DNA from: a virus
IMG/VR virus record: IMGVR_UViG_3300037011_000606
Location: 1-64,000 of that record
Length of the DNA stretch: 64,000 nucleotides
Reading direction: 5' to 3' (one strand)
A program made the position numbers and the translations under genes. The notes under the pieces were generated by a model, which did no database searches, had not been told where the DNA came from, and saw only the letters and a list, made by a program, of their open reading frames with translations. This document shows positions 14,867-32,036 of the stretch, in pieces; the stretch's first letter is position 1, and every line of letters begins with the position of its first letter.

Positions 14867-15553
14867 TTAAATCCCCTTGTGAAAGAGCTGGAATACCAAT
14901 GCGGAAGTCTCAGGTCCCAAAACAGTCTGCAATTGCGTGAGCTCTGCCATAGCAACACCTTTCAAACTGCCAAAGGTAGTCATCAGCAACTTAGCCTTCT
15001 CCAAAGAGACTCCTGGTACATGACTTCTCAAAACCTTCATTGGATCGAACATCTCATACTTAGGTTCCAAATTTCTCTCCTCCCCCCACTTGCCCTCTGC
15101 GATCTTAACACATATTCTATAAGCCATCTCCACCAGAGCGTTATCATTGGGGAACCACATCACATTCAACCTATCCCGGACAATCATCGATGCCAAGGAA
15201 CCATAAATGACTGGCTTGTGCAAAGTCATATTCATATATTGAAGTTTCGCCTCATGATCCTCAAGACTACCACTAATGAACAAGAAACAAATCTGATGAT
15301 TGTGCTTCAACTTGGGAATCTGGTCAAATATCCTTTTGCTCGAAATACTCTGTACCAAATCCGCGACTGCCTTCCTCTCAATACCAACGACATCTTGCAT
15401 TACATCTCCAACCTTCCTCAAAACAAAGTCAGCATTGAGAGCATCAACCTCATGATCAATACCCTTTCGCTTAACAAGTTCCTTCATCTTACTCTTCTCT
15501 CTACTATCCAACATAAACTTATAGCCCTTAGGCATCGGTGTTATATCCGCCAA
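14867..15553 (-). CDS. XPF/ERCC4 structure-specific nuclease with (HhH)2
   Basis: DSRE...ADF...IERKAVADLVQSI...RIFDQ; VPGVS...FGSL HhH. Confidence 0.88.
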   Translation of the reverse strand: MADITPMPKGYKFMLDSREKSKMKELVKRKGIDHEVDALNADFVLRKVGDVMQDVVGIERKAVADLVQSISSKRIFDQIPKLKHNHQICFLFISGSLEDHEAKLQYMNMTLHKPVIYGSLASMIVRDRLNVMWFPNDNALVEMAYRICVKIAEGKWGEERNLEPKYEMFDPMKVLRSHVPGVSLEKAKLLMTTFGSLKGVAMAELTQLQTVLGPETSALVFQLFHKGI

Positions 15554-16050
15554 GTTTGCACAACTCCAAAGTTATATACTCTCTGCTTAACCATCCTATA
15601 TCCGAATTTCCTAATCTCCTTATCATATAACATTGACAATAAACCAACATCATCGGATGTATATGCTTTTCTCGGTCTAGCTAACTCTTTCTTAGGAACA
15701 AAAAGCAATATCTCCTTAGGCTTGAAAATAACCGAATTCCACCACCCACAAATTCTTCCATACCACTTCGTCTTAAATTTCTCATCCCAAAATCTAGCAT
15801 ACACAGCTCCAGCTAAGAAACACCTGTCCATTATAACATTATCCTTACTTCTCCTAGCCTTACTACTATTCCAACATCTCTCCATTCCCATTACAAACTC
15901 CGCGAAGAGACCACCGATAAACGTTTCTCTAACACTCCATCTCCTAGAGAAGGGAATCATATGAATATACCTATACTTCGGCCCGCTATGCTCAGCCCAA
16001 TAGGTCTTCCCAGAGCCATCGGGTCCATCAATGCAGAGAATGGTTCTCAT
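15541..16050 (-). CDS. thymidylate/dNMP kinase-like P-loop protein
   Basis: IDGPDGSGKT; VIMDRCFLAGAVY; probable leaderless ATG at 16050. Confidence 0.75.
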   Translation of the reverse strand: MRTILCIDGPDGSGKTYWAEHSGPKYRYIHMIPFSRRWSVRETFIGGLFAEFVMGMERCWNSSKARRSKDNVIMDRCFLAGAVYARFWDEKFKTKWYGRICGWWNSVIFKPKEILLFVPKKELARPRKAYTSDDVGLLSMLYDKEIRKFGYRMVKQRVYNFGVVQTWRI

Positions 16051-16055
16051 CGCAC

Positions 16056-16092
16056 TATATATAGGTTTCCTATATATATATACTTTTGTGAC
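16056..16092 (-). promoter_or_regulatory. leftward promoter (GTCA-N6-TATATATA) overlapping a 10-bp inverted repeat
   Basis: minus strand gagagtca caaaag tatatata; IR tatatatagg-ttt-cctatatata 16056-16078. Confidence 0.65.
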
Positions 16093-16168
16093 TCTCTTTC
16101 TATGCACATGATAGTTATCCCTGACTCTATAAATGGACTACTGACAATCATGAAGAGGAGACCCGACA

Positions 16169-16200
16169 GTCAGGTAACTATATATAGTAATAACCCGATA
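16169..16200 (+). promoter_or_regulatory. rightward promoter (GTCA-N6-TATATATA-N9-CGATA)
   Basis: gtca ggtaac tatatata gtaataacc cgata. Confidence 0.7.
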
Positions 16201-16238
16201 CTAAATATAATCCCAAAGACACAAAATCAGAAGGAGGT

Positions 16239-16493
16239 GTGAATATGGGAATGGAACCGACGCCGGAGAGACCTCCACCTGATGGCTTCGTACGAGAGAT
16301 TTTTGACTCGTCGATAGCTCAAAATACCCAAATAACCGTGAAGAAAGAGATAAGGGATAGATTAGGAATAATGAAAGGAGACATTCTATTTGTGCAGATA
16401 TTAAAGGTATTGTCTCCTGAGGGAGAAACAAAGTATCAGTGGAGGGGAGAAAAGCCCTCCAAGGAAGACACTCCGGCAAGTGAAGAAGAGTAA
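16239..16493 (+). CDS. AbrB/MazE/SpoVT swapped-hairpin DNA-binding protein
   Basis: QITVKKEIRDRLGIMKGDILFVQI. Confidence 0.8.
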   Translation: MNMGMEPTPERPPPDGFVREIFDSSIAQNTQITVKKEIRDRLGIMKGDILFVQILKVLSPEGETKYQWRGEKPSKEDTPASEEE

Positions 16494-16505
16494 GGAGGAT
16501 ATAAG

Positions 16506-17597
16506 ATGGCAGATGATATAAGTAAGGAAACGAAGAAGCAATTGGACGACCTAGCAAGCAAGTGCTCGAAGAAGCTGGGAATCTCGACTGACACCATCGT
16601 GAAGCACTTCATGGATGACCTCGCAAGGGTCAAGAAGCAGCTTCCAGACCTGGATAAGAAAGTCCAGGAGATGCGTGCATTCGTTACGACCCAGTCTCAC
16701 TACAAGCAGGAGCTCAGGTCACCAGCTGTCTTCTTCGAAGGAGTTGTGCTAGGTGCTTCGGAACCGTTCGATATGGTTGCGAAGCGGAGGAGTGAGGCAA
16801 GGAAGCTGTTCGTCGAAGATCCGAAGAAGGCGATCGTCGAGGGATACACCGATGAGAAGGGTACTCCGCTGGATAGCAAGGAGACCTACGGTGATGGATC
16901 CGCGAATAGGAACTTCGGGAAGCCTCTTCCTGAGACGGATATGCTGCAGAATATCATAGGTATCTGTAGGGAGAAGCCTGGAGCCGCGTTCAGGATGTTC
17001 ATCATGCAGTTTGGTGATAACCTGGCGGGAAAGGTCAATATCCCGATGTTCGTACCCACGAAGTTCCGCGCTAATCCTAAGGCGAAGCAGGGCGATCCTG
17101 ATGAGCTGGCTTTGAACCCGTACAGCAAGATTGAGTTCACACTCTTCAAGGTAGAGGGATTCAATCTGTTGGAAGTTCTGCCGACCATCAAGGGCCTGAA
17201 CAAGATGCACACCGAGCTCGGAGAGATCGAAGCCTTCCATGCAAAGAGAGAGAGTCTCCCGATGCCCAAGAGGCTGATGATCACCGAGGCCGATATACAG
17301 CATATCGCTGGTGAGCCCAACCAGAAGACGGGGAATATAATGATTGTGCTGAGCGACCCGTCCTTGCCTGAGGACTCTGAGGGAATAACCTGCTGGCTAC
17401 CGGAGACGCTCCATCAGCTGATAGACTTCGGAGCTGGTTCTAGGGTTCTCGTTCTGGGAACGACGCAGAAGTCGAATTTCCAGGAGAAGGAGAACCACTT
17501 GATGAACCTCTGGGGGATATATGCTGATCCGAAGCTCAAGATGAGCAAGGATGAAGGCGGCCCTGCGGTCACACGCGGACCGAAGAGCGCAAAGTAA
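16506..17597 (+). CDS. putative OB-fold ssDNA-binding protein (RPA-like)
   Basis: C-terminal IVLSD...ITCW...FGAGSRVLVLG...NLWGIY OB-like pattern; GC3-rich; next to Sak4-like ATPase. Confidence 0.55.
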   Translation: MADDISKETKKQLDDLASKCSKKLGISTDTIVKHFMDDLARVKKQLPDLDKKVQEMRAFVTTQSHYKQELRSPAVFFEGVVLGASEPFDMVAKRRSEARKLFVEDPKKAIVEGYTDEKGTPLDSKETYGDGSANRNFGKPLPETDMLQNIIGICREKPGAAFRMFIMQFGDNLAGKVNIPMFVPTKFRANPKAKQGDPDELALNPYSKIEFTLFKVEGFNLLEVLPTIKGLNKMHTELGEIEAFHAKRESLPMPKRLMITEADIQHIAGEPNQKTGNIMIVLSDPSLPEDSEGITCWLPETLHQLIDFGAGSRVLVLGTTQKSNFQEKENHLMNLWGIYADPKLKMSKDEGGPAVTRGPKSAK

Positions 17598-17605
17598 AGT
17601 GTTTA

Positions 17606-17639
17606 AGAGAGGGGTGAAAGCCCCTCTCTATAGTTTTTT
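17606..17639 (+). terminator. hairpin plus T-tract
   Basis: agagagggg-tgaaag-cccctctct followed by tttttt. Confidence 0.7.
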
Positions 17640-17664
17640 GATTTAACTATAGGAGGTGAAATCG

Positions 17665-18564
17665 ATGGTTGGTTGGGGTAAGGAAGTTACTGACGAGGAT
17701 AAAGAAGCAAAGCCACAGGTATTTACGGATGCTGACGTTAAAGGCTGGTTTGACGAAAAGAAGCCCGGCGCTTCTTCTATATGTATGGCTTTTTATGGAT
17801 TTGATGGTGTGTGCAAGACTGGAGTTGCTATGGATTGTTATGCAAAGAACAAAAATGGTACTCCGGTGGAACCTGAGAAGTCTATCGTGATATTTGATAT
17901 GGATGGATCCGCGGATCCAATAAGGAATGCTTATCATCCACTTCACCCGAAGATGATTGTATTTGATCCGATAGAAATTGGGCCGAACAATGAGATTGAT
18001 TATGTAACGTCGTATAATAAGGTATTGAGCGCAGTTAAGTATCTTGTACAGCATGAGAAGGAAATGAATCTCCACGCAGTTATATTCGATGGTCTGGATC
18101 TTTTGCTGAAGTGCTGCGAGTATGTGATGAGGTTTGAAGATCTGAAGATGGACCCCGATACTCAAATGAAAGATTCCTGGCAATGGGCAAGGAGAAATCG
18201 TAGGTATTTGACTCCTGTACTCAATCTCAAGCGGTTGAAGTGTGCGAAGTTCTTTACGACGCACTTCAAAGAGTTGAAGGAGTGGAAAGCAGAACAATCA
18301 GGCGGACAGTCGAGAAGAGTATTGTCTACTAGAGAGATAATACCTGATTGGGAGAAGAGTACTCCTGGGATTATGTACCAGAAGGTTTTGTTAGAAAGAG
18401 TAGAGGTAGAGGGTGTGACTACCTTTGAGGCAACTGTACAAAAGGCCAAGGGCAAGCTAGAATTGGAAGGTAGAAAGTATACTTTGGCAAAGGTACAGGG
18501 CGGTAGGACTGAGTGGACGGGGTTGTCTGCTCTATACAAAGAGCTTGGACTTATCAAGGAGTGA
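17665..18564 (+). CDS. AAA_24/Sak4-like ATPase (recombination/annealing)
   Basis: FYGFDGVCKT Walker A; IFDMDG; AVIFDGLD Walker B; FTTH. Confidence 0.7.
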   Translation: MVGWGKEVTDEDKEAKPQVFTDADVKGWFDEKKPGASSICMAFYGFDGVCKTGVAMDCYAKNKNGTPVEPEKSIVIFDMDGSADPIRNAYHPLHPKMIVFDPIEIGPNNEIDYVTSYNKVLSAVKYLVQHEKEMNLHAVIFDGLDLLLKCCEYVMRFEDLKMDPDTQMKDSWQWARRNRRYLTPVLNLKRLKCAKFFTTHFKELKEWKAEQSGGQSRRVLSTREIIPDWEKSTPGIMYQKVLLERVEVEGVTTFEATVQKAKGKLELEGRKYTLAKVQGGRTEWTGLSALYKELGLIKE

Positions 18565-18568
18565 TTCC

Positions 18569-19330
18569 ATGCTTTATTATTGTATAGCGCCTATACGCTA
18601 CTTAGACATGGTGGTAGATGAGCCTCGCCACTTAGTTATAGCCCAGCATCTTAAGAACAACCCTAAGGTGTTGGAGTTTTTTATTAGGCAGAGAGAACGA
18701 GGGCATGAAATTATTCTCGACAATGGAGCTTATGAGTTCGGCGAACCGATGAAGATGTCAACCTACTTCTCTTTGATAGAGGCCCTCAAACCACAGATCG
18801 TCGTATCACCTGACTCCTGGAAGAATACCAATGTGACCATTGATCTGGTGAAGGAATTCTCCGACAGGAAGGCAGCTGCTGGATATAGTAAGAGTGAAGA
18901 GGATCATGGAGAGTATACTTTCACCTCGATGTATGTTCCGCAGGGGCAAAATCTCCATGAGTATATTAGATGTTGCATGGTAACGAGTATAGATTCTGGA
19001 GTAGATAGTATAATGGGCGTGTCTGTTGGAACTTGGAAAGATGCAACAGGGATTGTTAGACCGTTCATTGTTAGGAATTTGGGAGGAGGACACATATTCC
19101 ACTTGTTAGGATTGTGGAATATGGCAGAACTTCTTAAGCATAAGGTTAATGGAGCTTTCCCCAGGAATTTGAGAAGCATTGATACCAGTTGGCCTTTTAA
19201 AATGGCCGTAGACCCAGCGAACCCGACAGCTAAAATGGACTTCGAAATGAATATGACTGTTGAACAGGAAAATGCGGCAAAGATAAACCTTAAGGAACTA
19301 AGGAGATTTATTGAGAATGAACACCTATAG
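18569..19330 (+). CDS. TGT-fold guanine transglycosylase, DpdA-like (7-deazaguanine DNA insertion)
   Basis: ILDNGAYE, SPD, VPQG, FHLLG and RSIDTS motifs of the TGT barrel; adjacent to polB; que genes downstream. Confidence 0.7.
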   Translation: MLYYCIAPIRYLDMVVDEPRHLVIAQHLKNNPKVLEFFIRQRERGHEIILDNGAYEFGEPMKMSTYFSLIEALKPQIVVSPDSWKNTNVTIDLVKEFSDRKAAAGYSKSEEDHGEYTFTSMYVPQGQNLHEYIRCCMVTSIDSGVDSIMGVSVGTWKDATGIVRPFIVRNLGGGHIFHLLGLWNMAELLKHKVNGAFPRNLRSIDTSWPFKMAVDPANPTAKMDFEMNMTVEQENAAKINLKELRRFIENEHL

Positions 19331-21671
19331 ATTAGTTGCGGCGGACTACAAGGTCCAAGATGGCAGACCATATGTCTGGCTATTTGGTAGAGATTCCTTA
19401 GGTAATAAGGAAGTGTTCTCTATAGCTCATACTCCCTATGCTTATGTGCCACAGGAGGAAGCTAATAGTGACTATCCTCCGGTGAAGGCGATTGATGGTA
19501 GGATGGTTAAGAGAGTCGATACTCGCTTACCCAATGAGATAGCAGAGTTTGAGAAGAAGTACACGAGAGTGTATGAGGATAAGGTACTCTTCCCAATGAG
19601 GTTTTTAGTCGATAGGGGGATTAGATATGCGTTCACGATGGATGGCGGAGTTATAAGGGCCGCCACAGAGGAAGAAGAGAGAGAGGTAGAGAATGTTAAA
19701 TTGGTTACTGCTTACGTAGATACTGAGAGTGAGATTGTATTTAATGAGACTGAGAAGACTTGGTCGACGATACAAGACGTACAGAAAGGGAAGAATCTCA
19801 CATTATGTGTGACTACGGCTTTCTCAAATGATAAACAGTTGATTACCTATGAGGCAAGTGATGAGAGACAAGAGAAGGTTATGTGGAAGTATTGGATTGA
19901 TTTAATGGTGAAGAGAGATCCAGATATTATCGCTGGGTGGAATATAGCTGGACACGATCTCCGTGTATTCTATGAGAGGTGTTTAAGATTAAAGCTCAAC
20001 CCGAATATGTTGTCGCCCATGGGTTATATGTCATTAAGGGAGCATAAGGGAGCGATTGAAGGGAGAGTTAATGGAATTAACACCTTTGAAATGAGAGATG
20101 CATTTAAGAAGTTCTTCCAAGGAAGAACGTTTGATTCCTACGCATTAAAACCTGTAGCCGCTGATAAGCAGCTCTTCGGAGAGTTTGCTATAGAGGAAGA
20201 GGATTTCAAAGATTTGAATGTTCCGCACATAGAAGAAGTGGTTAAGTATAATAGAAGAGATGTTCAGAGGTTAATTAATATTGAAGAAGTGTTACATCTC
20301 ACTGACCAGTTTGACGGTATATCGAAGGTAGCTGGGTGTTTACTATCAGAGACTATAGATACAAGCAAATACTCAGATGCACTGTTTATGAGAGAGTTTC
20401 ATGATAAGTTCGTTCTGGGTACTAAGCAATATCATAAGAGAGAGAAGTATCAGGGCGCGATGGTATTAACACCACAGAGAGGAATATATGAGAATGTGGT
20501 CGCGCTAGACTTTTCAGGTATGTATCCTACGATAATCATGTCTTATAATATGAGTCCCGAGACATTGGTCATCGGAACAGCAAACGAAGCAGATATACAT
20601 AATATTGGGGGAGTGTATTTTAGAAAGAAGCCCTTTGGCATTGTACCCAATAGTATCAGGCGCATGATGACTTTCAGAAAGAGTATTAAGAAACAGATGA
20701 AGGGTTATGAAGTGGGGACTTTAGCTTATAAGGTACTGGACTATAGGCAATATGGTATTAAGCAGATGATAGCTGCGATGTATGGTTATTTCGCATTTCC
20801 CATGGGAAGGATGTACTATCCGCAAATCTCAAGCTCAGTTACCTTCTGTGGAAGGAAGAATATCATGAGCTGTGTAAACTTTATACAGGGGTTAGGATAT
20901 AAGGTACTATATGGTGATACTGACTCAATGCTCATTCAAGTAGATGACATCAGTAAGGGAGAAGAGCTAGAGAGTAAGGTCAACGGATTCCTAGTAGAGC
21001 TTGCTCAAAGAGAAGGGTTAACTGAACCACCAACCATTGAATATGAGATTGGTTATAAGAGACTGTTACTTGGTAAGAAGAAGAGATATGCTGGGTTGTG
21101 TACTCATTATAAGGGAAGGGAGTCTGACCTGGTTATCATTAAGGGATTTGAAGCAAAGAGATCGGACTCAGCGAAATTCTCAAGGAATTTGCAAACCGGA
21201 ATTCTAGGCAAAATTCTCCGAGGAGCTGAAGATAAGGAAATTTGTGAAGATGTTAAGAAGGTTTGGAAGGAGTTTAATATTAATGACTATCCATGGTGGG
21301 AGTTAGGCATACCACACAAGTTATCGAGAGCTCCGGAATTCTATCCTCATGCAGGTGCCGGATACCTAGCTGAAATCTACGCGAATACCTTCTTGGGAAA
21401 GAAGTTCGTAGAGGGAACTAGGCCGTTCATCTATTGGATAAGGAGAGTATTAGATGGGCTTCCTCCTAGAATATATCATAATGGGAAGTGGAAACCGTTA
21501 GAGAGGATAGCTTTGGATACTGAAGAAGATTTCAGAAAGTGGGTACCATATATAGATTGGAGTATGCAAAAACACAAGATAATAGAGAGAAAGTTAGAAC
21601 TTATCCTAAGTGCCTGGGGTAAGTCTCTAGGTGAGATAGTGAGTGATCAGAAGCAACAGACGTTATTCTAA
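19311..21671 (+). CDS. polB: family B DNA polymerase with 3'-5' exonuclease
   Basis: ExoI VDTE, ExoII WNIAGHD, ExoIII YNRRDV; DFSGMYP; KQMIAAMYG; YGDTDS; KKRY; KGFE. Confidence 0.97.
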   Translation: MRMNTYRLVAADYKVQDGRPYVWLFGRDSLGNKEVFSIAHTPYAYVPQEEANSDYPPVKAIDGRMVKRVDTRLPNEIAEFEKKYTRVYEDKVLFPMRFLVDRGIRYAFTMDGGVIRAATEEEEREVENVKLVTAYVDTESEIVFNETEKTWSTIQDVQKGKNLTLCVTTAFSNDKQLITYEASDERQEKVMWKYWIDLMVKRDPDIIAGWNIAGHDLRVFYERCLRLKLNPNMLSPMGYMSLREHKGAIEGRVNGINTFEMRDAFKKFFQGRTFDSYALKPVAADKQLFGEFAIEEEDFKDLNVPHIEEVVKYNRRDVQRLINIEEVLHLTDQFDGISKVAGCLLSETIDTSKYSDALFMREFHDKFVLGTKQYHKREKYQGAMVLTPQRGIYENVVALDFSGMYPTIIMSYNMSPETLVIGTANEADIHNIGGVYFRKKPFGIVPNSIRRMMTFRKSIKKQMKGYEVGTLAYKVLDYRQYGIKQMIAAMYGYFAFPMGRMYYPQISSSVTFCGRKNIMSCVNFIQGLGYKVLYGDTDSMLIQVDDISKGEELESKVNGFLVELAQREGLTEPPTIEYEIGYKRLLLGKKKRYAGLCTHYKGRESDLVIIKGFEAKRSDSAKFSRNLQTGILGKILRGAEDKEICEDVKKVWKEFNINDYPWWELGIPHKLSRAPEFYPHAGAGYLAEIYANTFLGKKFVEGTRPFIYWIRRVLDGLPPRIYHNGKWKPLERIALDTEEDFRKWVPYIDWSMQKHKIIERKLELILSAWGKSLGEIVSDQKQQTLF

Positions 21672-21682
21672 GGAGGTATACG

Positions 21683-22186
21683 ATGCAGAAGGAAAAGTCG
21701 GTACAGATGCCATTGGAAGAGCATATTGTCTATGATAAGGATATGTTGTCTGATATGTTCATGAGAAATAAGAAATTTACGGACTTTGCCAGGGAACATA
21801 GTCCAAGGGGATTAGGTTTACCAGAGAGTGCAATAAAGACGTCTAATATCATTGGCAGTGGATATAAGCAACCGATGATCGAAGAAATACGTTCGATGAG
21901 GGTAGCTTTAGCCATGATGGACGAGTTATCAGAGTATATAACTCAGCTACCGTTTAAGTGGTGGGGGAGGGGCGCCCAAGAAGTAGATAAGAAGAAAGCG
22001 TTGGAGGAGCTCATTGACCTGTTGCACTTCTTCTTCGTGGCAGTGGATGATCTTGGATTTAATGCAAAGGATATATACGATATGTATGTGTTGAAGAACA
22101 ATCATAATTGGAAGAGGTTCACGGATAAGATAGGCTGGGGAAAGACTAGATTAGAACATGATGATCATCCAGAGGTATTGAAATGA
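21683..22186 (+). CDS. all-alpha (dimeric dUTPase/MazG-like) NTP pyrophosphatase
   Basis: DELSE...FKWW...EELIDLLHF...YVLKNNHNWKR. Confidence 0.85.
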   Translation: MQKEKSVQMPLEEHIVYDKDMLSDMFMRNKKFTDFAREHSPRGLGLPESAIKTSNIIGSGYKQPMIEEIRSMRVALAMMDELSEYITQLPFKWWGRGAQEVDKKKALEELIDLLHFFFVAVDDLGFNAKDIYDMYVLKNNHNWKRFTDKIGWGKTRLEHDDHPEVLK

Positions 22187-22395
22187 TATATGTGATATCT
22201 GGTAATTATGCACAGTTTCTCAAGTTCTGTAGTGAAAGAAATATATCTTCTAGGGATGCTATCTATATTGATAGTGCCTATAAGCTCAAAGGAAAAATTA
22301 TAACGAAGGATGATGAAGTGGTATACTATGGAACTTGGAGTGAACGTAAGGATATAGATTTAATACAACGCGAATTGAGGATAGTGACAAGATGA
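22183..22395 (+). CDS. hypothetical protein
   Basis: ATGA overlaps at both ends. Confidence 0.6.
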   Translation: MIYVISGNYAQFLKFCSERNISSRDAIYIDSAYKLKGKIITKDDEVVYYGTWSERKDIDLIQRELRIVTR

Positions 22396-24503
22396 ATGAC
22401 TTTTCTATGAGTGTATTAAGAGAGCGATGCTTTATTCGCAATGAGAAAGGGGAGACGACTGAAAATGTTGAACAGATGTTTAGAAGAGTAGCGAAAGCAG
22501 TAGCAGCAGCAGAAAAAGTACAGTTGAGACAAAAGTGGGAGGAGGAGTTCTACAAAGTAATGATAGCGATGGATTTCCTCCCTGGAAGTCCAACTTTGGT
22601 TAACGCTGGTAGAAAGAACCAAATGTTAAGCAGTTGCTTCGTAGTTCCTATCGAAGATTCTATGGAGGGGATCTTTGGGAAATTGACTGAAGCGGCTACT
22701 ATCCAGAAGATGGGTGGTGGAACCGGTTTCTCGTTCTCTAAACTTCGACCCAAAGGTGATGTGGTCAGTTCGACGATGGGTGTGGCAAGTGGTCCGGTGT
22801 CTTTCCTTTCAGCCTTCGACGGTGTATCTGAAGCTATAAAGCAAGGTGGTGTTCGCAGAGGAGCCAATATGGGGATTTTGAAAGTAGATCACCCAGACAT
22901 AGTGGAATTTATAACTTGCAAGGATAAGGAGGGAGTATTGGCTAACTTTAATCTGAGCGTCGCTCTAACGGACGAATTTATGGAGTTAGTGATGAGGGAT
23001 GGTGGAGTACTATCACTAATCAATCCTAGAAATAAGATACGGCAATCAACGATCGAAGCTCGCCGACTGTTTGAGATGATAGCTGATCAGATGTGGAAGA
23101 ATGGAGAGCCAGGAGTTATCTTCATAGATACGATTAATAAGAAGCATACCATCAATGCAGAGATAGAATCAACAAACCCTTGTGGAGAACAGCCATTATT
23201 GCCCTATGAATCTTGTAACTTAGGTTCGATTAACCTGGCGAATATGGTAGAGAAGGGAGTTTTCTCTGAAGAGAAGCTGATAGGTGTAGTTCAGGTGGCT
23301 ATTAGATTCTTGGATAATGTTATTGATGTGAATCACTATCCGTTGGAGAAGATTAAAGTAGCTACTTTAGCTAATAGGAAGATAGGTATGGGTGTTATGG
23401 GTTGGCATGACTTCCTAATCAAGATAGGTGTGCCTTATGATTCAGACCAAGCTATAGAATACATACATAAGGTAATGGATATCATAAGAGAGACTGCAGT
23501 AGAGACCTCAGTTGAATTAGCTGAAGAGAAGGGTGTCTTCCCTAATGTCAAGAATAGTATCTATGCGAATGTAACTCATCCACCGAGAAATGCTGAAAGG
23601 ATAACCATAGCTCCGACGGGAACGATATCCTCCATAGCTGGATGCTCAAGCGGAATAGAACCACATTTCGCATTAGCATATAAGAGAAGGGTGTTAGATT
23701 CGGAATTTGATATAACAGTAGAGTCATTAGAAGATATGATGAAGAGATATGAGTTCACTTGGAGCGATGTGATTAAGAATAATGGAACTCTTCATGGTAT
23801 TGGAGTCCCACCCGATATTCGAAGGATCTATCAAACATCATTAGAGATATCTCCTCACTGGCATATTATGCACCAGGTTATCTTCCAAAGATATACAGAC
23901 GCGGCAGTAAGCAAAACGATCAATGTACCCAATAGGACGACCAAAGAGGAAATAGCTAAGGTGGTGTTGGGAGCTTGGAAGGAAGGTTGCAAGGGTCTAA
24001 CAATCTATAGAGATGGCAGCCGAGCCGAGCAAGTATTATCCACAGGTTCTAAGAAACTCCTCCCAGCAAATAGGCCCGAGGTTATAGATTGTAAGGCAAT
24101 TAAAATCAAAACTGGTTGTGGCAGTATGTACACCACCGTTGGGATGATAGAAGGGAGAGTATATGAGGTATTAACATCGGTAGGAAAAGCTGGTGGGTGT
24201 ACCAATGCGATGATGGAAGCGGTATGTAGATTAATCTCAGTTAGTTTAAGGAAAGGGGTATCGGTCGATGAGATAATCGACCAGTTGGAAGGGATTAGAT
24301 GTCCGCATCCAACACCTGTGCTGCCGGGAGGAAAGGGTGTGTTAAGCTGTCCTGATGGTATAGTAAAAGCTATTAAGACACAGTTGTCAGAGAGCCATGT
24401 CTCTAAACATGAGATGTTTAGTCCGTGTCCTAGATGTGGAGAGAAGATCATTAACTCAGAAGGTTGCGAAAAATGTTCGGTGTGTACTTGGACGAGGTGT
24501 TAA
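22392..24503 (+). CDS. nrdJ: class II (B12-dependent) ribonucleotide reductase with TSCPD/Zn-ribbon C-terminus
   Basis: PGSPTLVNAG, LSSCFV, RRGANM, NPCGEQPL, TIAPTGTIS, KGLTIYRDGSR. Confidence 0.96.
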   Translation: MNDFSMSVLRERCFIRNEKGETTENVEQMFRRVAKAVAAAEKVQLRQKWEEEFYKVMIAMDFLPGSPTLVNAGRKNQMLSSCFVVPIEDSMEGIFGKLTEAATIQKMGGGTGFSFSKLRPKGDVVSSTMGVASGPVSFLSAFDGVSEAIKQGGVRRGANMGILKVDHPDIVEFITCKDKEGVLANFNLSVALTDEFMELVMRDGGVLSLINPRNKIRQSTIEARRLFEMIADQMWKNGEPGVIFIDTINKKHTINAEIESTNPCGEQPLLPYESCNLGSINLANMVEKGVFSEEKLIGVVQVAIRFLDNVIDVNHYPLEKIKVATLANRKIGMGVMGWHDFLIKIGVPYDSDQAIEYIHKVMDIIRETAVETSVELAEEKGVFPNVKNSIYANVTHPPRNAERITIAPTGTISSIAGCSSGIEPHFALAYKRRVLDSEFDITVESLEDMMKRYEFTWSDVIKNNGTLHGIGVPPDIRRIYQTSLEISPHWHIMHQVIFQRYTDAAVSKTINVPNRTTKEEIAKVVLGAWKEGCKGLTIYRDGSRAEQVLSTGSKKLLPANRPEVIDCKAIKIKTGCGSMYTTVGMIEGRVYEVLTSVGKAGGCTNAMMEAVCRLISVSLRKGVSVDEIIDQLEGIRCPHPTPVLPGGKGVLSCPDGIVKAIKTQLSESHVSKHEMFSPCPRCGEKIINSEGCEKCSVCTWTRC

Positions 24504-24504
24504 G

Positions 24505-24663: not shown

Positions 24664-24665
24664 GA

Positions 24666-24821
24666 ATGCCTGATCTGCCGAAGAGACCCGATGTACAACC
24701 TGGCGACACAATCATAATGCAGGTGGTTAAGATGTCATTGGGAGGGGATGGAAAAACGTATGTTACCCTAGCCAACCCTGACGTCTTTGTTAACACCGCA
24801 ACGGTGATGTTGAAGAGGTGA
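24666..24821 (+). CDS. hypothetical protein (51 aa)
   Basis: fills the gap; MPDLPKRPDVQPGDTIIMQVVK. Confidence 0.45.
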   Translation: MPDLPKRPDVQPGDTIIMQVVKMSLGGDGKTYVTLANPDVFVNTATVMLKR

Positions 24822-24825
24822 TAGG

Positions 24826-25500
24826 ATGAAGCTGCACGCCGTCAATAATCTAGAAGAAGGGTTAATATGGATGAAGAGTAAGATAGATGAGTTCTTGCCT
24901 AAGGAGCTTGATGACAATTTGAATGAATCTGTTAAGTTCTTTATGGAGAGGTATTGGAAGGATTTGGCCCCATTGCCGGCGAGCTCAACGGGAAGGTATC
25001 ATCACTCAACGGAGAATGTTAAGCCGTTTGGATTAATAAACCATACTCTAAGAGTTGTGTGGTTTACGAAAGAGATAGGCATTGAAGAGACGGGGTATCC
25101 TGCAGGATATGATAAGTGGAAGGGAATTAAGAAGATAAGAGAAGCCATAGCTGCCGCTTTCCTGCACGACTTTGGAAAAGTGGAATCTTTTAAGGCGGAT
25201 CATGGTAAGGAGTCAGCTAGGATGGTGTCTAGTACATCTATCTATGGTATTAGCCCAAGTAAAGAGCAATTGGAGGAGTTTAATGATATTGCACTATCGC
25301 CAGAGGTTTGCAATATGATCAGACGACATATGCACAACTGGTCGTTTATACATTGCGTAGAGATGTGGGATAGAATAGTAGCATATGCAGATTATCTGGC
25401 AAGCAGGCCAACAGTACATCTGTCAGATGTAACTTATTTGGTGATGGAGGGACAACAAAATGTTTTCAGACCCACTGGAACCACGAGCAATAATCAATGA
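24826..25500 (+). CDS. HD-domain phosphohydrolase
   Basis: YHH...GLINHTLRV...FLHDFGK...RHMH...YADYLAS. Confidence 0.88.
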   Translation: MKLHAVNNLEEGLIWMKSKIDEFLPKELDDNLNESVKFFMERYWKDLAPLPASSTGRYHHSTENVKPFGLINHTLRVVWFTKEIGIEETGYPAGYDKWKGIKKIREAIAAAFLHDFGKVESFKADHGKESARMVSSTSIYGISPSKEQLEEFNDIALSPEVCNMIRRHMHNWSFIHCVEMWDRIVAYADYLASRPTVHLSDVTYLVMEGQQNVFRPTGTTSNNQ

Positions 25501-26606: not shown

Positions 26607-26813
26607 ATGTATTTGTCTATTGGAGATAGGTTAGATGGGCAAATGATCGTCGGAAAAGGAGCTCGCGGGAATATGTTTGTTAAGCATAGAGGGATAATAG
26701 TGTTTATCAAGGGGCCGCCGGAAGCTATCAAGAATTTGAAAGAGGGAGATAAGGTAAGTATAAAGATTATTGAGACTCAGAAGAACTTCGCAGAGGCAGA
26801 GGTGTTAGTGTGA
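26607..26813 (+). CDS. single TRAM-domain RNA-binding protein
   Basis: GKGARGNMFVKHRGIIVFIKG...GDKVSIKIIETQKNFAEAEV. Confidence 0.8.
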   Translation: MYLSIGDRLDGQMIVGKGARGNMFVKHRGIIVFIKGPPEAIKNLKEGDKVSIKIIETQKNFAEAEVLV

Positions 26814-27028
26814 ATATGTTTAAAGGGAGATGTCCATACTGCCAACGAATCACCCCTGTGGGTAAGAGTCAATGGTATACCTCAGTTAAATGTCAATGGT
26901 GTGGTATGAAGTTCGTACCATTTGCAACTGAGAGGAAGGACATAACGACCAGTGATATTTATAAGAAGAATGTGGCGAAGAGTTTGGAAGGAGCTAAAGT
27001 AAAATTCCTACCAAGGCAGGTGATTTGA
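26810..27028 (+). CDS. Zn-ribbon protein
   Basis: CPYC...CQWCG. Confidence 0.6.
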   Translation: MNMFKGRCPYCQRITPVGKSQWYTSVKCQWCGMKFVPFATERKDITTSDIYKKNVAKSLEGAKVKFLPRQVI

Positions 27029-27273
27029 TGAGGCATTTATGCAAGTGTAGACAATCTTTGATGGAGAGTACGAAAGACTTAATCGTGGATATGGAGAATG
27101 GAAAGAAAGTAAAGTTAATGTTGTTGAATTGTCATAAGTGTGGGGGTTTCGAATGCTTGCCCTTAGAAGATTTCGAAAGGGTAATGCTCCATGCCGCTCC
27201 AGACTCGAAGAAAGAGCTAAAGGAGAAGTTTGAAATAGATTGTGATGTAATATTAGAGGAGATGAAAAAATGA
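27025..27273 (+). CDS. Zn-ribbon protein
   Basis: CKC...CHKCG. Confidence 0.6.
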   Translation: MMRHLCKCRQSLMESTKDLIVDMENGKKVKLMLLNCHKCGGFECLPLEDFERVMLHAAPDSKKELKEKFEIDCDVILEEMKK

Positions 27274-27770
27274 GAATAGTGACTGAACAAGAGATAGCGG
27301 GCGCCCACTTCCTACCCAACTACGATGGGAAGTGTAAGAATCTGCATGGACACAACTGGCTGGTTAAAGTGGCTTTGGAAGGAATCCCATTGGATGATGG
27401 ACCCAATCAAGGGATGCTGCTTGACTTCTCAACCATTAAGAATACGATTAATGAGTTTGATCATAAGAGCTTGAATGATGTATTAGAGAACCCGACCGCT
27501 GAGAATATCTCCATATTGCTGTGCAGAAAGCTTATGGAAGTAGTGGATGATAATATAGCAAGGATCACGGTTCGGGTTTACGAGACCTCTAAAGGCTACG
27601 CGGAAATATGCAGTGATGATAAGATCATAATGGCGAGGGAAGAGGAAGAAGAAGAAGAGGCCGCGGCAGTTGAAGCTGTTCAGAAGGCAAGAGAGGCGGA
27701 TAAGGATATAGAGAGGGAAGGTGAAGAGGAAGAGGGAGGCGACAATAATGACGATGCTGAAAGTGAATGA
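27270..27770 (+). CDS. queD: 6-carboxy-5,6,7,8-tetrahydropterin synthase with acidic tail
   Basis: AHFLPNYDGKCKNLHGHNW, DF, DHKSLN, PTAEN, VYET. Confidence 0.95.
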   Translation: MRIVTEQEIAGAHFLPNYDGKCKNLHGHNWLVKVALEGIPLDDGPNQGMLLDFSTIKNTINEFDHKSLNDVLENPTAENISILLCRKLMEVVDDNIARITVRVYETSKGYAEICSDDKIIMAREEEEEEEAAAVEAVQKAREADKDIEREGEEEEGGDNNDDAESE

Positions 27771-28494
27771 GATATTCAAGTCGGTACAGGGAGAATCTAC
27801 ATTGGCGGGACAACAGACCATATTCGTCAGGTTGTCTGGGTGTAATCTCAACTGTACTTGGTGTGATACTAAGTATGCGAAGGTAGGACGTTTGATGACT
27901 GTTAAAGAGATAATGAAAGAGATGGCAGAGGTTGGCTACACTGGATTTGTCTGCGTAACTGGAGGAGAGCCCCTGACTCAAGATATTCAGTTGTTAGTCA
28001 ATACTCTAAGAATAGAGGAGAATCAATATATTAGTGTGGAGACTAATGGAAGTCAGTCTCTAGTACCTAATTGTAGGATGGTTTGCGCACAGAAGATGGT
28101 AGTAGATTGTAAGGGGCCGTCGAGTTTCAAGACGCCTAAGCTCAAGTGGGACTATGATGCGAGATTCTCAAAGGTGGTAGATGAATTAAGAACCCGCCAA
28201 AACTATCCGGAGTTTCATGATGAGATAAAGTTCGTTATCGCTGATAGAAAGGATTATGACTCCGCGAAGGCTTGGCTAAAGTACATTGCAACTAAGTTAA
28301 GATATATAGAGAAGGAGGGCTGCTTCATACCCAATATTCTCTTTTCGCCGGTTATAGTTAAAGGCAAAGATAGAAAGATAGTGAGGAAGTTGGCCGAGTG
28401 GATGGTGGCTGATATAGATAATAAGGAGTTGACACCCAAGTATCAACTGCAACTGCATAAGTACATTTGGCCAGAGGTTAAGCGAGGGGTTTAG
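27748..28494 (+). CDS. queE: 7-carboxy-7-deazaguanine synthase (radical SAM)
   Basis: EIFKSVQGE, FVRLSGCNLNCTWCDT, TGGEP, ETNG, QLHKYIW. Confidence 0.95.
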   Translation: MTMLKVNEIFKSVQGESTLAGQQTIFVRLSGCNLNCTWCDTKYAKVGRLMTVKEIMKEMAEVGYTGFVCVTGGEPLTQDIQLLVNTLRIEENQYISVETNGSQSLVPNCRMVCAQKMVVDCKGPSSFKTPKLKWDYDARFSKVVDELRTRQNYPEFHDEIKFVIADRKDYDSAKAWLKYIATKLRYIEKEGCFIPNILFSPVIVKGKDRKIVRKLAEWMVADIDNKELTPKYQLQLHKYIWPEVKRGV

Positions 28495-28893
28495 ATGAAG
28501 TTAAGCTGGCTCGATGTACAACAGTCAATAGATAGACTAACCAAGTACTTGGAGCTAAGACACGCCAGTGAATCTCTACATAAGCATACTATCCTTGGAG
28601 TAGTAAGAGGGGGTTTGATCCCCGCGGTAATGTTATCGCATAGACTAACCGATACCTTCTTCGATACTATAATCGTGGAAGATCATAATGAGCTTAAGGG
28701 TAGGTATATAGTTGTAGATGATATATGTGATACTGGGAAGACGTTCCGATCTCTTAAGAGAAGGTTGCCGAATGAGGATAATATATTTTGTTGCTTGGTG
28801 TATAAACAGCATAGTAAGTTTGTACCAGACTTTTCTGGTATTGTGACTAATTCAAAGGAATGGGTTGTATTTCCGTGGGAGGAAGATAAATGA
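28495..28893 (+). CDS. type I purine phosphoribosyltransferase (Gpt/XGPRT-like)
   Basis: GVVRGGLIPA, VVDDICDTGKT, WVVFPWE. Confidence 0.9.
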   Translation: MKLSWLDVQQSIDRLTKYLELRHASESLHKHTILGVVRGGLIPAVMLSHRLTDTFFDTIIVEDHNELKGRYIVVDDICDTGKTFRSLKRRLPNEDNIFCCLVYKQHSKFVPDFSGIVTNSKEWVVFPWEEDK

Positions 28894-29699
28894 ACACGCC
28901 AGATGTACAGAGTAGAGAGGATAAGAGAGAATTAAATATTGATATGGTGGGTGTAAAGGGAGTCGAGTGGCCGATTAAGCTGAAAGATAAAACTTTAGGG
29001 ATTCAGTATACCTCGGGCAAGTTCAACATGTATGTGAGTTTGCCCAAGTCGCAGAAAGGTACTCATATGAGTAGGTTTGTGGAGGCCTTAGCCAAATTCA
29101 CGAAGGAGGAGAGTTTCTTTTCGATGGATGTTATGGTCGATGAGATCGCTCCGTATATAAGAGAGTTGCTGGAGTCTTTGACTGTTTATCTGGAATGTGA
29201 ATTTACGTATTTTATCAATGTAACATCTCCAGAGACGTTAATAGGAAGCAAGCTACCCATTCGATGTTGCTTCGTTACGGAAGGGAGCAAAGATCACTCG
29301 AGAAAGGTAGTTGAGGTCAAGGTCCCGGTAAATACTCTATGTCCCTGCTCTCAAGAGATGAGTGAGAATCCACATAATCAAAGAGGGATTGTGACGATAC
29401 AAGCGGATGTTAACGCTTTCGTCTGGATAGAGGAACTTGTAGAGATTGCACAGAGAGCTGGCTCATGCGAAATATATCCACTTCTCAAGCGACCCGATGA
29501 AAAGTGGGTGATGGATAAGTCAGCTACGAGGCCAAGGTTTGTAGAAGATGTGGTAAGAGAAGCCTCTCTAGAGCTAATCAAAGATAAAAGGATCGATATT
29601 TTTAACGTTGAATGTGAGAATATGGAGAGTATACATCCGCATAGCGCATTTGCAAGTATTGAATGGCGGAGGTTTATGCATGAGGGAAAAGAACAGTAG
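28890..29699 (+). CDS. folE2: GTP cyclohydrolase IB (FolE2/MptA family)
   Basis: PDVQ, KGTHMSRF, LCPCS, PHNQR, LLKRPDE, FVEDVVR, ESIHPH. Confidence 0.95.
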   Translation: MNTPDVQSREDKRELNIDMVGVKGVEWPIKLKDKTLGIQYTSGKFNMYVSLPKSQKGTHMSRFVEALAKFTKEESFFSMDVMVDEIAPYIRELLESLTVYLECEFTYFINVTSPETLIGSKLPIRCCFVTEGSKDHSRKVVEVKVPVNTLCPCSQEMSENPHNQRGIVTIQADVNAFVWIEELVEIAQRAGSCEIYPLLKRPDEKWVMDKSATRPRFVEDVVREASLELIKDKRIDIFNVECENMESIHPHSAFASIEWRRFMHEGKEQ

Positions 29700-30297
29700 C
29701 TGTGAAACATGCACTCTGAATAAAGAGTGTTGGGTCCCATCCGAAGGAGTTATTCCTAATGACATAATGTTTGTAGGTGAGGCTCCTGGAGAAAGGGAAA
29801 TACAATTGGGTAAACCTTTCGTTGGAAATGCAGGAAGGATGTTAGCAGATATATTTCTAAGGTTGAATATTAATAGATCAGAGGTCTATATAACAAACTC
29901 ATGTATGTGTAGGCCACCTCATAATAGAACGCCAAGTCCATTAGAGGTAGCATGTTGTAGAGAGTCATTGTATGCGGAAATAATCAAAGTGAACCCTATA
30001 GTGATAGTTGCTCTCGGCCGAACAGCATACACATCGATTATGAATGTTGGTCAAGCAATAACACCAACGCTCGAAGAAAATCATGGATATATATATCCTG
30101 TCATGATCGGCGAACCGAGGAAGTTGCTGTATACCTACCACCCCCAGGCTTGCAGCTACTCTATCATAAGTAAAGAGAGATGTAAGGACGATTTGAGAAG
30201 ACTACCTAAGATATTAGACCTCCCTAGAGATATGGTGATTGTGGATAATCGAAGAGGTGACACTCATGGACAAGTTCGCCAAGACCGAATTGACTAG
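29680..30297 (+). CDS. udg: uracil-DNA glycosylase family 4 (Fe-S)
   Basis: CxxC, FVGEAPG, PFVG.AG, ITN..MCRPP.NR.P, YHP. Confidence 0.9.
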   Translation: MREKNSSCETCTLNKECWVPSEGVIPNDIMFVGEAPGEREIQLGKPFVGNAGRMLADIFLRLNINRSEVYITNSCMCRPPHNRTPSPLEVACCRESLYAEIIKVNPIVIVALGRTAYTSIMNVGQAITPTLEENHGYIYPVMIGEPRKLLYTYHPQACSYSIISKERCKDDLRRLPKILDLPRDMVIVDNRRGDTHGQVRQDRID

Positions 30298-30505
30298 GAG
30301 AATGCGAGAGGTGTTTGGGAATAGGCAGAGATTCGCCTGCCAACGTACCCAGTGCAATCATAATAAGAAAGAGGTTTGTTATAGCAAGCTCGATTATCCA
30401 TGTAGAGAGGTTCTGCCCACCTATCTCTTACAGATGTTTGACAGGGCAGTAGAAATAGCAGAGAAGGATGACGATCCAATTCAAAAGAAGTTGGGGGAGT
30501 TCTAA
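30266..30505 (+). CDS. hypothetical Cys-containing protein
   Basis: GAGGTGA RBS before MDKFAK. Confidence 0.55.
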   Translation: MDKFAKTELTRRMREVFGNRQRFACQRTQCNHNKKEVCYSKLDYPCREVLPTYLLQMFDRAVEIAEKDDDPIQKKLGEF

Positions 30506-30705
30506 TGGGAGGGTATTATGTCATTGGGTATAAGGTATATGATAATTTCACCGGGGGAAGAGACCCTATATTAGTCGGTCCATTTAACGATGCTAGGGAA
30601 GCACATCATTGGTGTTTTAATCATGGACATAAGGTAGAGTTCGAACAGTTTTCGCCAAAGGAAATTGTAGAAGCGATAGATCCTAAGACTATTAAAGGTG
30701 ATTAG
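30505..30705 (+). CDS. hypothetical protein
   Basis: TAATG coupling. Confidence 0.55.
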   Translation: MGGYYVIGYKVYDNFTGGRDPILVGPFNDAREAHHWCFNHGHKVEFEQFSPKEIVEAIDPKTIKGD

Positions 30706-30871
30706 ATGACGAGGAACGTTAGAATTTGGATTGATGTAGGAGATAGACCAGTTGATGGACCTAAGGGAACGATAGCTATACACGATATTATAAACAAGGC
30801 TATGAAGAAGGCGGGCTTTGTTAAGAATAAGGATTACACCGATGGAAATGATGTTGACGATAGGTGATCTT

Positions 30872-31168
30872 GTGAAGATATTCTCTGAGACTGTGATAAA
30901 GGTCCAAATACCTTTACCAAGGGAAAATGTTATAGATAGTATATTGCATGCATGTAATAAGCTAGTTGAGCTAATGAATGAGGATCCTGATATTATTGCC
31001 ATATCTCCACAGGTGTATGAGGAATTTTGTCGTAGTCAGTGGAGCAGCATATATAAATTCATGACAATAGTCGGAGATAGTGTAGCCGGCATACCTATCA
31101 AGGTAGATAAGGGTGTAGAGAATAACACCGTGGAGATAAGATCAAAGCCAAAGAGAGTGGATTTATGA
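30872..31168 (+). CDS. stand-alone HK97-capsid A-domain-like protein
   Basis: aligns by eye with the A-domain of this genome's MCP; AGGTGA RBS before GTG (ORF is open from 30818). Confidence 0.5.
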   Translation: MKIFSETVIKVQIPLPRENVIDSILHACNKLVELMNEDPDIIAISPQVYEEFCRSQWSSIYKFMTIVGDSVAGIPIKVDKGVENNTVEIRSKPKRVDL

Positions 31169-31319
31169 GTTCGGCGAACCTAGTCCAAAGCTGTATGGGC
31201 TGCCCATACTTCTATGTGGATATGATAGTTGCATCTAATTTCACGGCTATACCTTACTGCCACTTACCCATCGGTACAATGTGTCCGAAGGTCACTCTCA
31301 TATATAAGGAGGATGGAAT

Positions 31320-32036
31320 ATGAAACCAAAGAGCAAGATAAGCAGTGCAATATGTCTTATATCTGGTGGGCTGGATTCCGCGACCGTTTTAGGGATACTG
31401 TTAGAACAAGGGTACAAGGTCTACCCGCGGACTTTCGATTACGGCCAGCTTCACAAGAGAGAGATTCAAAGTGCAAAGAACATAGTATCATACTACAAAG
31501 ACAAGTATCCTGGTCACCTGTTGCCTGTGGGGGTAGTAGAGCTGGGCGTCCTCAAGACGATCGGCGGATCGGCGCTCACTAACCACAACATAACCGTCCC
31601 TACCCAAAGAGACAATAGCGAGATGTCTTCCCATATTCCAGTGACCTACGTCCCAGGACGCAACACCATCCTATTATCCATAGCATTGTCCATCGCCGAA
31701 ACAGTAGACGCTGACCTTGTGGGCATAGGTGTTAACCATCTCGACTACTCCGGCTACCCAGACTGTCGCCCAGAGTATATAGAAGCGTTTAACAACTTAG
31801 CTAGACTGTCGAGCAAGCGCGCTGTAGAAGGTCATCCAATTAGAATCTACGCACCCTTACTCAAGCTCACAAAATCCGAAATTATAAAAAGGGGCACGGA
31901 GATCGGAGTTCCTTACCACCTGACGTGGTCCTGTTATCAGGGAGGAGGTAAACCCTGTGGAGTGTGCGACTCCTGTATACTCCGTGCCCAGGGCTTCAAA
32001 GAGGCAGGACTTGAAGACCCCGCAATTCGACCTTAA
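31320..32036 (+). CDS. queC: 7-cyano-7-deazaguanine (preQ0) synthase
   Basis: SGGLDS, FDYGQ, YVPGRN, YPDCRPE, TWSCY, CGVCDSC. Confidence 0.97.
   Translation: MKPKSKISSAICLISGGLDSATVLGILLEQGYKVYPRTFDYGQLHKREIQSAKNIVSYYKDKYPGHLLPVGVVELGVLKTIGGSALTNHNITVPTQRDNSEMSSHIPVTYVPGRNTILLSIALSIAETVDADLVGIGVNHLDYSGYPDCRPEYIEAFNNLARLSSKRAVEGHPIRIYAPLLKLTKSEIIKRGTEIGVPYHLTWSCYQGGGKPCGVCDSCILRAQGFKEAGLEDPAIRP

Follow-up and report, generated by a model that had tools for sequence, protein, structure and literature searches.

How does a virus that encodes the synthesis of a 7-deazaguanine base bring that base into its DNA: by exchanging it for guanine in the finished polymer, by building the modified nucleotide ahead of replication, or by both? 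The question is raised by a locus in the IMG/VR virus record IMGVR_UViG_3300037011_000606, of which we analyzed bases 1–64,000 (64,000 nucleotides in all, hereafter the window). The record has 95,097 bp, carries 125-bp direct terminal repeats and is complete according to CheckV. Portal, baseplate, tape-measure and Dit-like genes are present on the minus strand from 32 kb on, which identifies a tailed virus; ARAGORN found no tRNA genes, and by blastn the que region had no DNA-level match among isolated phages. For positions 15,541 to 32,036, a sequence-only reading had proposed a pre-replicative 7-deazaguanine system consisting of the preQ0 pathway, a phosphoribosyltransferase (PRTase), a kinase, a ribonucleotide reductase (RNR), dNTP hydrolases and a family B DNA polymerase (PolB). 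Each gene that it named could be located at or near its proposed position by Pfam, NCBIfam, PHROGs or fold comparison. Gene identities, folds, synteny and phyletic pattern together make us highly confident that this tailed virus, whose complete genome has 95 kb, encodes at the locus a 7-deazaguanine DNA-replacement module of the DpdA3 type.

All four enzymes of the route from GTP to preQ0 are encoded on the plus strand of the window, as had been claimed from the letters. FolE2, a GTP cyclohydrolase (28,890–29,699; PF02649, 256.9 bits; NF010200, 239.4 bits, cut-off 215), and QueC, the preQ0 synthase (31,320–32,036; TIGR00364, 201.2 bits, cut-off 150.3; PF06508, 235 bits), score above their equivalog cut-offs, and QueD and QueE are assigned at family level. 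QueD, a 6-carboxytetrahydropterin synthase (27,270–27,770), matches PF01242 (PTPS) at 89.5 bits and TIGR03367 at 80.2 bits, just under the cut-off. QueE, the radical SAM synthase of 7-carboxy-7-deazaguanine (CDG) (27,721–28,494), carries the cluster motif CNLNCTWC, matches Radical_SAM at 49.2 bits and has five QueE models as its top NCBIfam matches (146.7 bits, under their cut-offs). QueC comprises 238 amino acids in one domain, without a GAT fusion. No match to QueF (PF14489) was found anywhere in the complete 95,097-bp genome, in line with the earlier claim that QueF is missing, and dPreQ0 is therefore the expected DNA base. As a side observation, QueD ends in an extremely acidic tail of about 45 residues with runs of Glu and Asp, the protein having a pI of 4.4.

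The base-exchange enzyme is predicted to be the product of the gene at 18,545–19,330 (plus strand, 261 amino acids), whose 3′ end overlaps the polB start and whose true start is likely the ATG at 18,569. The protein gave no Pfam (E ≤ 1), NCBIfam or PDB sequence match, and the Pfam tRNA-guanine transglycosylase (TGT) family, PF01702, had no match in the complete genome; its placement comes from profile and fold methods. An alignment of 16 homologs (A1) matched the DpdA3 of phage immuto_2-6A in hhalign with a probability of 99.9 (E = 8.5e-31). The A1 profile retrieved DpdA3 in four isolate records (E = 4e-42, 8e-34, 7e-29 and 3e-11), namely phiST (CGPG_00065; E = 8e-34), CP220 (E = 7e-29), immuto_2-6A and Brevundimonas phage StAshley. 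The AlphaFold2 (AF2) model (pLDDT 87.9, pTM 0.88) found bacterial and murine TGT as its top Foldseek matches (E about 1e-6, probability 1.00), with DpdA 7ui4 also matched, so that the TGT-fold gene announced by the sequence-only reading at the polB start is confirmed. Two aspartates, D59 (in LDNG) and D213 (in DTSxP), are invariant in 16/16 A1 sequences; judged by motif, they may correspond to TGT Asp102 and Asp280, the profile match to 7ui4 having an E value of 0.49. No Cys is conserved, so the TGT-type zinc subdomain is absent. The product is thus a bona fide member of the DpdA3 family, and base exchange on DNA is its predicted activity by homology and model. Because DpdA3 is encoded, the earlier suggestion of a nucleotide route operating instead of DpdA does not hold.

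We also considered an identity as DpdA4 (DUF6610) and rejected it: the window protein has no PF20314 match, and hhalign to HVTV1_69, the DpdA4 of HVTV-1, reached a probability of 46%. Two homologs of the window DpdA3 scored 26.7 and 27.1 bits against PF20314, near its 27-bit cut-off. As to genomic setting, the DpdA3-like gene very often lies immediately upstream of a DNA polymerase gene, of family B in the window and in the related loci L086–L090; a family A polymerase gene stands directly 3′ of it in StAshley (L083) and in many of L091–L136. A scan of genome contigs found only three distant DpdA3-like genes (L137–L139; 28–29% identity), in Patescibacteria/Saccharimonadia and gammaproteobacterial metagenome-assembled genomes.

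Between queE and folE2 lies the Gpt-like PRTase gene that the sequence-only reading had recognized (28,495–28,893, plus strand; PF00156, 41 bits). It follows the queE stop without a gap, shares an ATGA with the start of folE2, and encodes a minimal Gpt-type enzyme of 132 amino acids with the 6-oxopurine PRTase fold. Of the PDB sequences, the Pyrococcus purine PRTase 1vdm matches it best (E = 6.6e-16). The AF2 model (pLDDT 93) aligned with archaeal hypoxanthine-guanine-xanthine PRTase (HGXPRT), with 1vdm and with E. coli xanthine-guanine PRTase (XGPRT) at VIA Z 17.4–17.9 and a root-mean-square deviation of 2.2–2.4 Å over 121–126 residues. The protein has the type I PRTase fold with the phosphoribosyl pyrophosphate (PRPP) motif, the pyrophosphate loop and the purine-stacking aromatic residue, and across the family DDIxDTGxT (PRPP motif), RGGLIP (pyrophosphate loop) and WxxxPW (stacking Trp) are invariant. 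The equivalog level for Gpt/XGPRT was not reached (NF006613, 51.8 bits, cut-off 138). After strand 2, the flexible loop is shorter than in 1vdm by about 13 residues: residues 60–72 of 1vdm have no counterpart, and XGPRT has the loop. Roughly half of the viral PRTase family is loop-less, and the remainder carries an insert of 20–25 residues. The position preceding the catalytic Asp, where C occurs 48 times, N 24 times, A 7 times and H once, was tried as a specificity marker and discarded as uninformative because it shows no link to the presence of QueC.

The placement of a PRTase among que genes is conserved across several viral lineages and is not a one-off. Of the viral PRTase family's loci in IMG/VR, which number at least 350, we surveyed the best 80, with flanks of up to 10 kb and genes called by BLAST or hidden Markov models. 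At least one deazaguanine gene lies within 10 kb of the PRTase in 62 of the 80. FolE or FolE2 was present in 56/80 loci and directly adjoined the PRTase in 38/80; QueD was found in 41, QueE in 39, an all-alpha NTP pyrophosphatase (NTP-PPase) in 34, DpdA3 and PolB in 30 each, and QueC in 23. The commonest gene order is DpdA3-QueC-QueD-QueE-FolE-PRT-NTPPase-PolB, and FolE2 stands in place of FolE in 1/80 of these related loci. When PRTase-bearing records of at least 20 kb, most of them fragmentary, were searched whole, QueD was found in 31/44 and a DpdA3-like gene in 26/44. A DpdA3-like gene was likewise found in 22/40 mostly fragmentary IMG/VR records with the PRTase, and in 4/4 PRTase isolate lineages searched whole (phiST, immuto_2-6A, StAshley and CP220).

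Isolated phages show the same association. By tblastn, 25 of 50,697 isolated-phage records carry the PRTase, and at least 22 of these 25 are linked to deazaguanine genes, against a background of 335 records (0.66%) with QueC. The carriers are Campylobacter CP220-like, Cellulophaga phiST-like and Flavobacterium immuto phages, together with two Brevundimonas phages, one Synechococcus phage and two gut contigs; the gene order is QueD-QueE-PRT-FolE-NTPPase-DpdA3-DpdN-Tmk-QueF in immuto and DpdA3-PolA-RNR-dNMP kinase-FolE-PRT in StAshley. CP220, phiST and immuto_2-6A, all among the 25, are the three phages reported to have 100% of dG replaced, which was credited to DpdA3 with the PRTase unmentioned (PMC10516641). 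In the isolates to which the DpdA literature searched assigns DpdA1, DpdA2 or DpdA4, tblastn did not find the PRTase. Among isolates, the PRTase thus tracks phages with complete G replacement.

A reverse survey, comprising 51 IMG/VR loci retrieved with the DpdA3 subfamily of the window, gave the complementary picture. The PRTase was present in only 3/51 loci, two of them close relatives with the exact gene order of the window, and about 40/51 carry QueC, QueD, QueE or FolE together with open reading frames (ORFs) of the uracil-DNA glycosylase (UDG) family and have neither PRTase nor NTP-PPase. The all-alpha NTP-PPase was confined to five relatives of the window, and two of these have the PRTase as well. 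The PRTase therefore co-varies with the all-alpha NTP-PPase. Our literature search found no publication linking a PRTase to phage 7-deazaguanine DNA, and the conserved association of PRTase and NTP-PPase with viral deazaguanine clusters is new here. A complete jumbo phage genome of 328,096 bp (G034, locus L063; direct terminal repeats, CheckV 100%) carries FolE-QueD at about 181–182 kb; its PRTase, a larger one, is encoded at about 247 kb amid epimerase/sugar-metabolism, HIT, GGDEF and radical-SAM genes, and the genome also has a weak QueE-like ORF. QueC and a PF01702 match are absent, and the search for an A1-type DpdA found none up to E ≤ 10. Because of the sugar-metabolism, HIT and GGDEF genes around its PRTase, we regard it as ambiguous as a que-plus-PRTase genome without DpdA and do not use it as such.

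The module is completed by genes of replication and nucleotide metabolism. PolB (19,311–21,671, plus strand; PF00136, 179 bits) has unusual motifs at 20,508–20,786 (residues 400–492): DFSGMYP as motif A and KQMIAAMYG as motif B, the latter having Ala-Ala at the usual family B Asn-Ser site. These motifs are kept in the relatives L087–L090, and at other PRTase loci PolB shows the usual DFTSLYP. Directly after polB, the NTP-PPase gene (21,683–22,186, plus strand; dUTPase_2/MazG superfamily) matches PF08761 at 49.9 bits (cut-off 22.9) over residues 73–117, with further matches to PRA-PH (weak), to the NTP-PPase family phrog_173 and to dimeric dUTPases in the PDB (weak). Its product also weakly matches T4-like phage genes annotated as dUTPase, NTP pyrophosphohydrolase or dCTP pyrophosphatase; T4 gp56 is an enzyme of this kind. 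NrdJ, a class II (adenosylcobalamin) ribonucleoside-diphosphate reductase (22,392–24,503, plus strand), matches TIGR02504 at 660.8 bits (cut-off 399.95) and has the Pfam domains lgN, lgC and TSCPD. An HD-domain phosphohydrolase follows (24,826–25,500, plus strand; PF01966, 34.3 bits; phrog_5889). It is syntenic in L089 and L090, and among the isolates its homologs are confined to SPO1-like Bacillus phages (SPO1 gp32.6, SP82G and CampHawk; 27–30% identity). SPO1-type phages replace thymine with hydroxymethyluracil pre-replicatively. The RNR, the pyrophosphatase after polB and the HD hydrolase are as the sequence-only reading had described them. Its dNMP kinase, encoded on the minus strand at 15,541–16,107, is better called a Tmk-like P-loop (d)NMP kinase candidate: the GPDGSGKT P-loop, the DRCF motif and the synteny (homologs upstream of DpdA3 in L086–L088 and L101) speak for it, but the thymidylate-kinase match is weak (Thymidylate_kin, E = 0.0038, below cut-off; phrog_761, E = 2e-5). 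This protein has a pI of 10.1 and no PDB sequence match.

The window system thus belongs to the known DpdA3-type 7-deazaguanine kind and is distinct within it in its divergent DpdA3 subfamily, in FolE2 rather than FolE, in its expected preQ0 end point and in its coupling to PolB and NrdJ. One of its closest counterparts, immuto_2-6A (PMC10516641), has in common with it the core order QueD-QueE-PRTase-FolE, an all-alpha NTP-PPase, DpdA3, a Tmk-like gene and a nearby DNA polymerase, with 37% identity between the PRTases and about 21–27% between the DpdA3s. It differs in having FolE of type IA, QueF and the DpdN formyltransferase, leading to fdPreQ1, as well as PolA and a PF01503-type NTP-PPase, whereas the window has FolE2, no QueF, PolB, NrdJ and a PF08761-type NTP-PPase. 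The phages phiST (100% dDG) and CP220 (100% dADG) resemble the window in having DpdA3 and a small PRTase of the same family (E = 2e-13 and 1e-4, respectively), and phiST has a dUTPase/MazG gene, of PF08761 type (PMC10516641), beside DpdA3 and the polymerase; unlike the window, their pathways stop at CDG or use DpdL, with a different end base. In CP220 the PRTase lies about 110 kb from DpdA3 and adjoins a radical-SAM gene. Replacement levels have been measured in phiST and CP220.

Outside the DpdA3 phages, three kinds of system invite comparison. The tubercidin and toyocamycin clusters of Streptomyces also bring together a GTP cyclohydrolase, QueD, QueE (with or without QueC) and a purine-type PRTase, TubE or ToyH, and the viral PRTase has this gene context, a PRTase in a FolE-QueD-QueE(-QueC) cluster, in common with them. 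These clusters differ in serving cellular secondary metabolism, without a transglycosylase or polymerase, and in yielding a free ribonucleoside antibiotic. The hydroxymethylcytosine (hmC) system of T4 (gp56 dCTPase, gp42, gp1) and the Z-genome system of S-2L (MazZ, DatZ, PurZ) resemble the window in having an NTP-PPase, an HD hydrolase, a dNMP kinase and a polymerase of their own in the replication module; in the window, however, the base-exchange enzyme DpdA3 is present, and base synthesis with glycosyl transfer takes the place of dNMP modification. In the DpdA1, DpdA2, bDpdA and DpdA4 systems (9g, CAjan, HVTV-1 and bacterial dpd islands), a preQ0 pathway likewise feeds a TGT-fold enzyme, with replacement of at most about 30% (PMC10516641). 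Cui et al. thought preQ0 unlikely as a DpdA3 end product (PMC10516641).

How, then, might these parts work together? In the reading that we favor, at a probability of roughly 0.4, modification would proceed at two levels, the PRTase making a deazaguanine nucleotide alongside exchange by DpdA3; every substrate named here, and the extent of replacement, is our inference from the genes. The free preQ0 that FolE2, QueD, QueE and QueC produce from GTP, or its precursor CDG, would be coupled to PRPP by the PRTase, like TubE and as proposed for Streptomyces ToyH. The resulting ribonucleotide could be phosphorylated by the Tmk-like kinase or by host kinases and reduced at the diphosphate level by the viral NrdJ, and the viral PolB would then incorporate dPreQ0TP, while the NTP-PPase, and possibly the HD hydrolase, would lower competing dGTP. 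Guanines still entering the DNA would be swapped by DpdA3, giving near-complete replacement. More broadly, we hold it at about even odds that G replacement in DpdA3 phages, including the window virus, is mainly pre-replicative, whether through the PRTase nucleotide and dGTP removal with polishing by DpdA3 or through action of DpdA3 on dGMP.

Several lines of evidence argue for the two-level mechanism. The joining of CDG to PRPP by a PRTase encoded in a que-type cluster has been demonstrated experimentally for TubE (PMC6112128). According to Cui et al. (2023, PMC10516641), efforts to get DpdA3 to function in E. coli failed, and cells infected with CP220 contained an ADG nucleoside in their cytoplasm. 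The PRTase is linked to 100% replacement and co-varies with the NTP-PPase, and the likeness of the HD protein to proteins of SPO1-type isolates and the weak likeness of the NTP-PPase to T4-like phage proteins may point the same way. Other observations weigh against it. The PRTase adjoins FolE, a GTP consumer, more often than QueC or QueE, which would also fit resupply of GTP, and the final base varies among PRTase phages (ADG, DG, fdPreQ1, preQ0), guanine being common to all. DpdA3 is kept in four PRTase isolate lineages, which a self-sufficient nucleotide route does not predict, and since DpdA3 and que clusters without a PRTase are common, the PRTase is an accessory and not a requirement of DpdA3 systems. 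The NTP-PPases of different lineages belong to different subfamilies without BLAST similarity (most loci have the PF01503 type, the window and phiST that of PF08761), and the surveyed loci are not phylogenetically independent. All canonical 6-oxopurine PRTase residues are retained, including the Asp of DDIxDTG, which in XGPRT and HGPRT contacts N7, an atom that 7-deazaguanines lack. Finally, all 7-deazaguanine DNA modification is post-replicative in the published view (PMC10516641).

Much of this would be expected if modification were purely post-replicative, with DpdA3 exchanging G for preQ0 in finished DNA and the PRTase salvaging the released guanine to GMP, an account that we consider rather unlikely overall. 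Guanine from the breakdown of host nucleic acids would be used too, GTP would be resupplied to FolE2 and a competing exchange substrate removed, and the NTP-PPase, HD protein, kinase and RNR would be ordinary phage nucleotide-metabolism genes (dUTPase and the like). Guanine salvage remains a strong rival because the PRTase, Gpt/XGPRT-like in sequence and fold, keeps every canonical residue. It also matches the presence of DpdA3 in all four PRTase isolate lineages searched whole, the preference of the PRTase for the neighborhood of FolE or FolE2, two non-homologous GTP cyclohydrolases, the single substrate shared by phages with different end products, the dispensability of the PRTase in many DpdA3 clusters, as expected of an accessory that improves flux, and the published model (PMC10516641). 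What it leaves unexplained is why the NTP-PPase travels with the PRTase and is absent from DpdA3 clusters without one, and the PRTase stands next to DpdA3 itself in only 1/80 loci. The lack of any reconstitution of DpdA3 and the ADG nucleoside of the infected cytoplasm also speak against it (PMC10516641). We know of no precedent for complete replacement by a post-replicative exchange enzyme.

A role for every conserved component, NTP-PPase, DpdA3, PRTase and kinase alike, would be provided if DpdA3 acted on dGMP: the NTP-PPase would convert dGTP to dGMP, DpdA3 would put preQ0 in place of the guanine of this mononucleotide, the PRTase would recycle the guanine, and the Tmk-like kinase with host nucleoside diphosphate kinase would make dPreQ0TP for PolB, in a logic like that of T4 hmC or the Z-genome. 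This arrangement would account for 100% replacement and for the failed reconstitution at the DNA level, and it agrees with the nature of DpdA3, a mostly acidic TIM barrel of minimal size (about 250 amino acids) that lacks a conserved Cys, and with the immuto DpdA3 gene adjoining those of a PurN-like formyltransferase and a thymidylate kinase. We nevertheless judge it improbable. To our knowledge, no TGT-fold enzyme acts on mononucleotides, and DpdA3-like genes occur with que genes but without NTP-PPase, PRTase or a detected kinase, clusters in which a DNA substrate is the simplest reading. Slightly less probable still is that the PRTase-fold protein is no catalytic partner at all and is instead a hitch-hiking purine-salvage gene product or a PyrR-like regulator binding PRPP or nucleotides. 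Its minimal 132-residue form without the flexible loop, the PyrR regulators among its near structural neighbors (Z about 15), the 18/80 loci with no deazaguanine gene in the available flank and the G034 PRTase, distant from FolE-QueD amid sugar-metabolism genes, would suit such a role. Against this stand the deazaguanine link in most surveyed loci and isolate records, far above the QueC background, its persistence across gene orders, polymerase families and cyclohydrolase types, and the invariant catalytic motifs.

Several neighboring genes complete the description of the locus. A family-4 uracil-DNA glycosylase gene, which was absent from the gene list of the sequence-only reading, follows folE2 (29,608–30,297, plus strand; TIGR00758, 142.5 bits, cut-off 125.3; PF03167, 91.5 bits; GEAPG motif); its start probably lies downstream of 29,608. 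UDG-family ORFs adjoin FolE or directly follow DpdA3 in 40/51 DpdA3-like loci, although in some cases the ORF probably represents a family A polymerase's UDG-like domain. Two further ORFs, both upstream of DpdA3, were considered as members of the module and rejected. The one just upstream (17,656–18,564) resembles AAA_24-type phage recombination ATPases (ESM Atlas score 0.98) and has no Pfam or PHROGs match, and the one at 16,506–17,597 has no ESM Atlas match.

Base composition shows an asymmetry of its own. GC skew in the window is +0.3 or −0.3, following gene direction (genes between 18,569 and 56,489), and C is strongly depleted on the sense strand in both gene orientations, with G at 0.31 and C at 0.13 in codon position 3. 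Outside the window, at genome positions 75,000–76,927, the plus strand has a C-free run of 1,928 bp. The median sense-strand GC skew of module genes is 0.16 in PRTase loci versus 0.02 in DpdA3 loci without a PRTase; lineage and GC content confound this comparison.

Phages use 7-deazaguanine DNA as a major defense against restriction and CRISPR, and the post-replicative view of the phages with 100% replacement rests solely on the presence of DpdA3, which has never been reconstituted. The partnership of PRTase and NTP-PPase makes the choice between pre- and post-replicative installation experimentally decidable. If salvage is the true role of the PRTase, these viruses would recycle guanine in a loop that brings complete base exchange within their means. 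Should the nucleotide route be the true one, they would offer enzymes for dPreQ0TP-type nucleotides and for fully deazaguanine-substituted DNA, and a mainly pre-replicative route, by this means or by DpdA3 acting on dGMP, would overturn the statement that all 7-deazaguanine modification of DNA is post-replicative.

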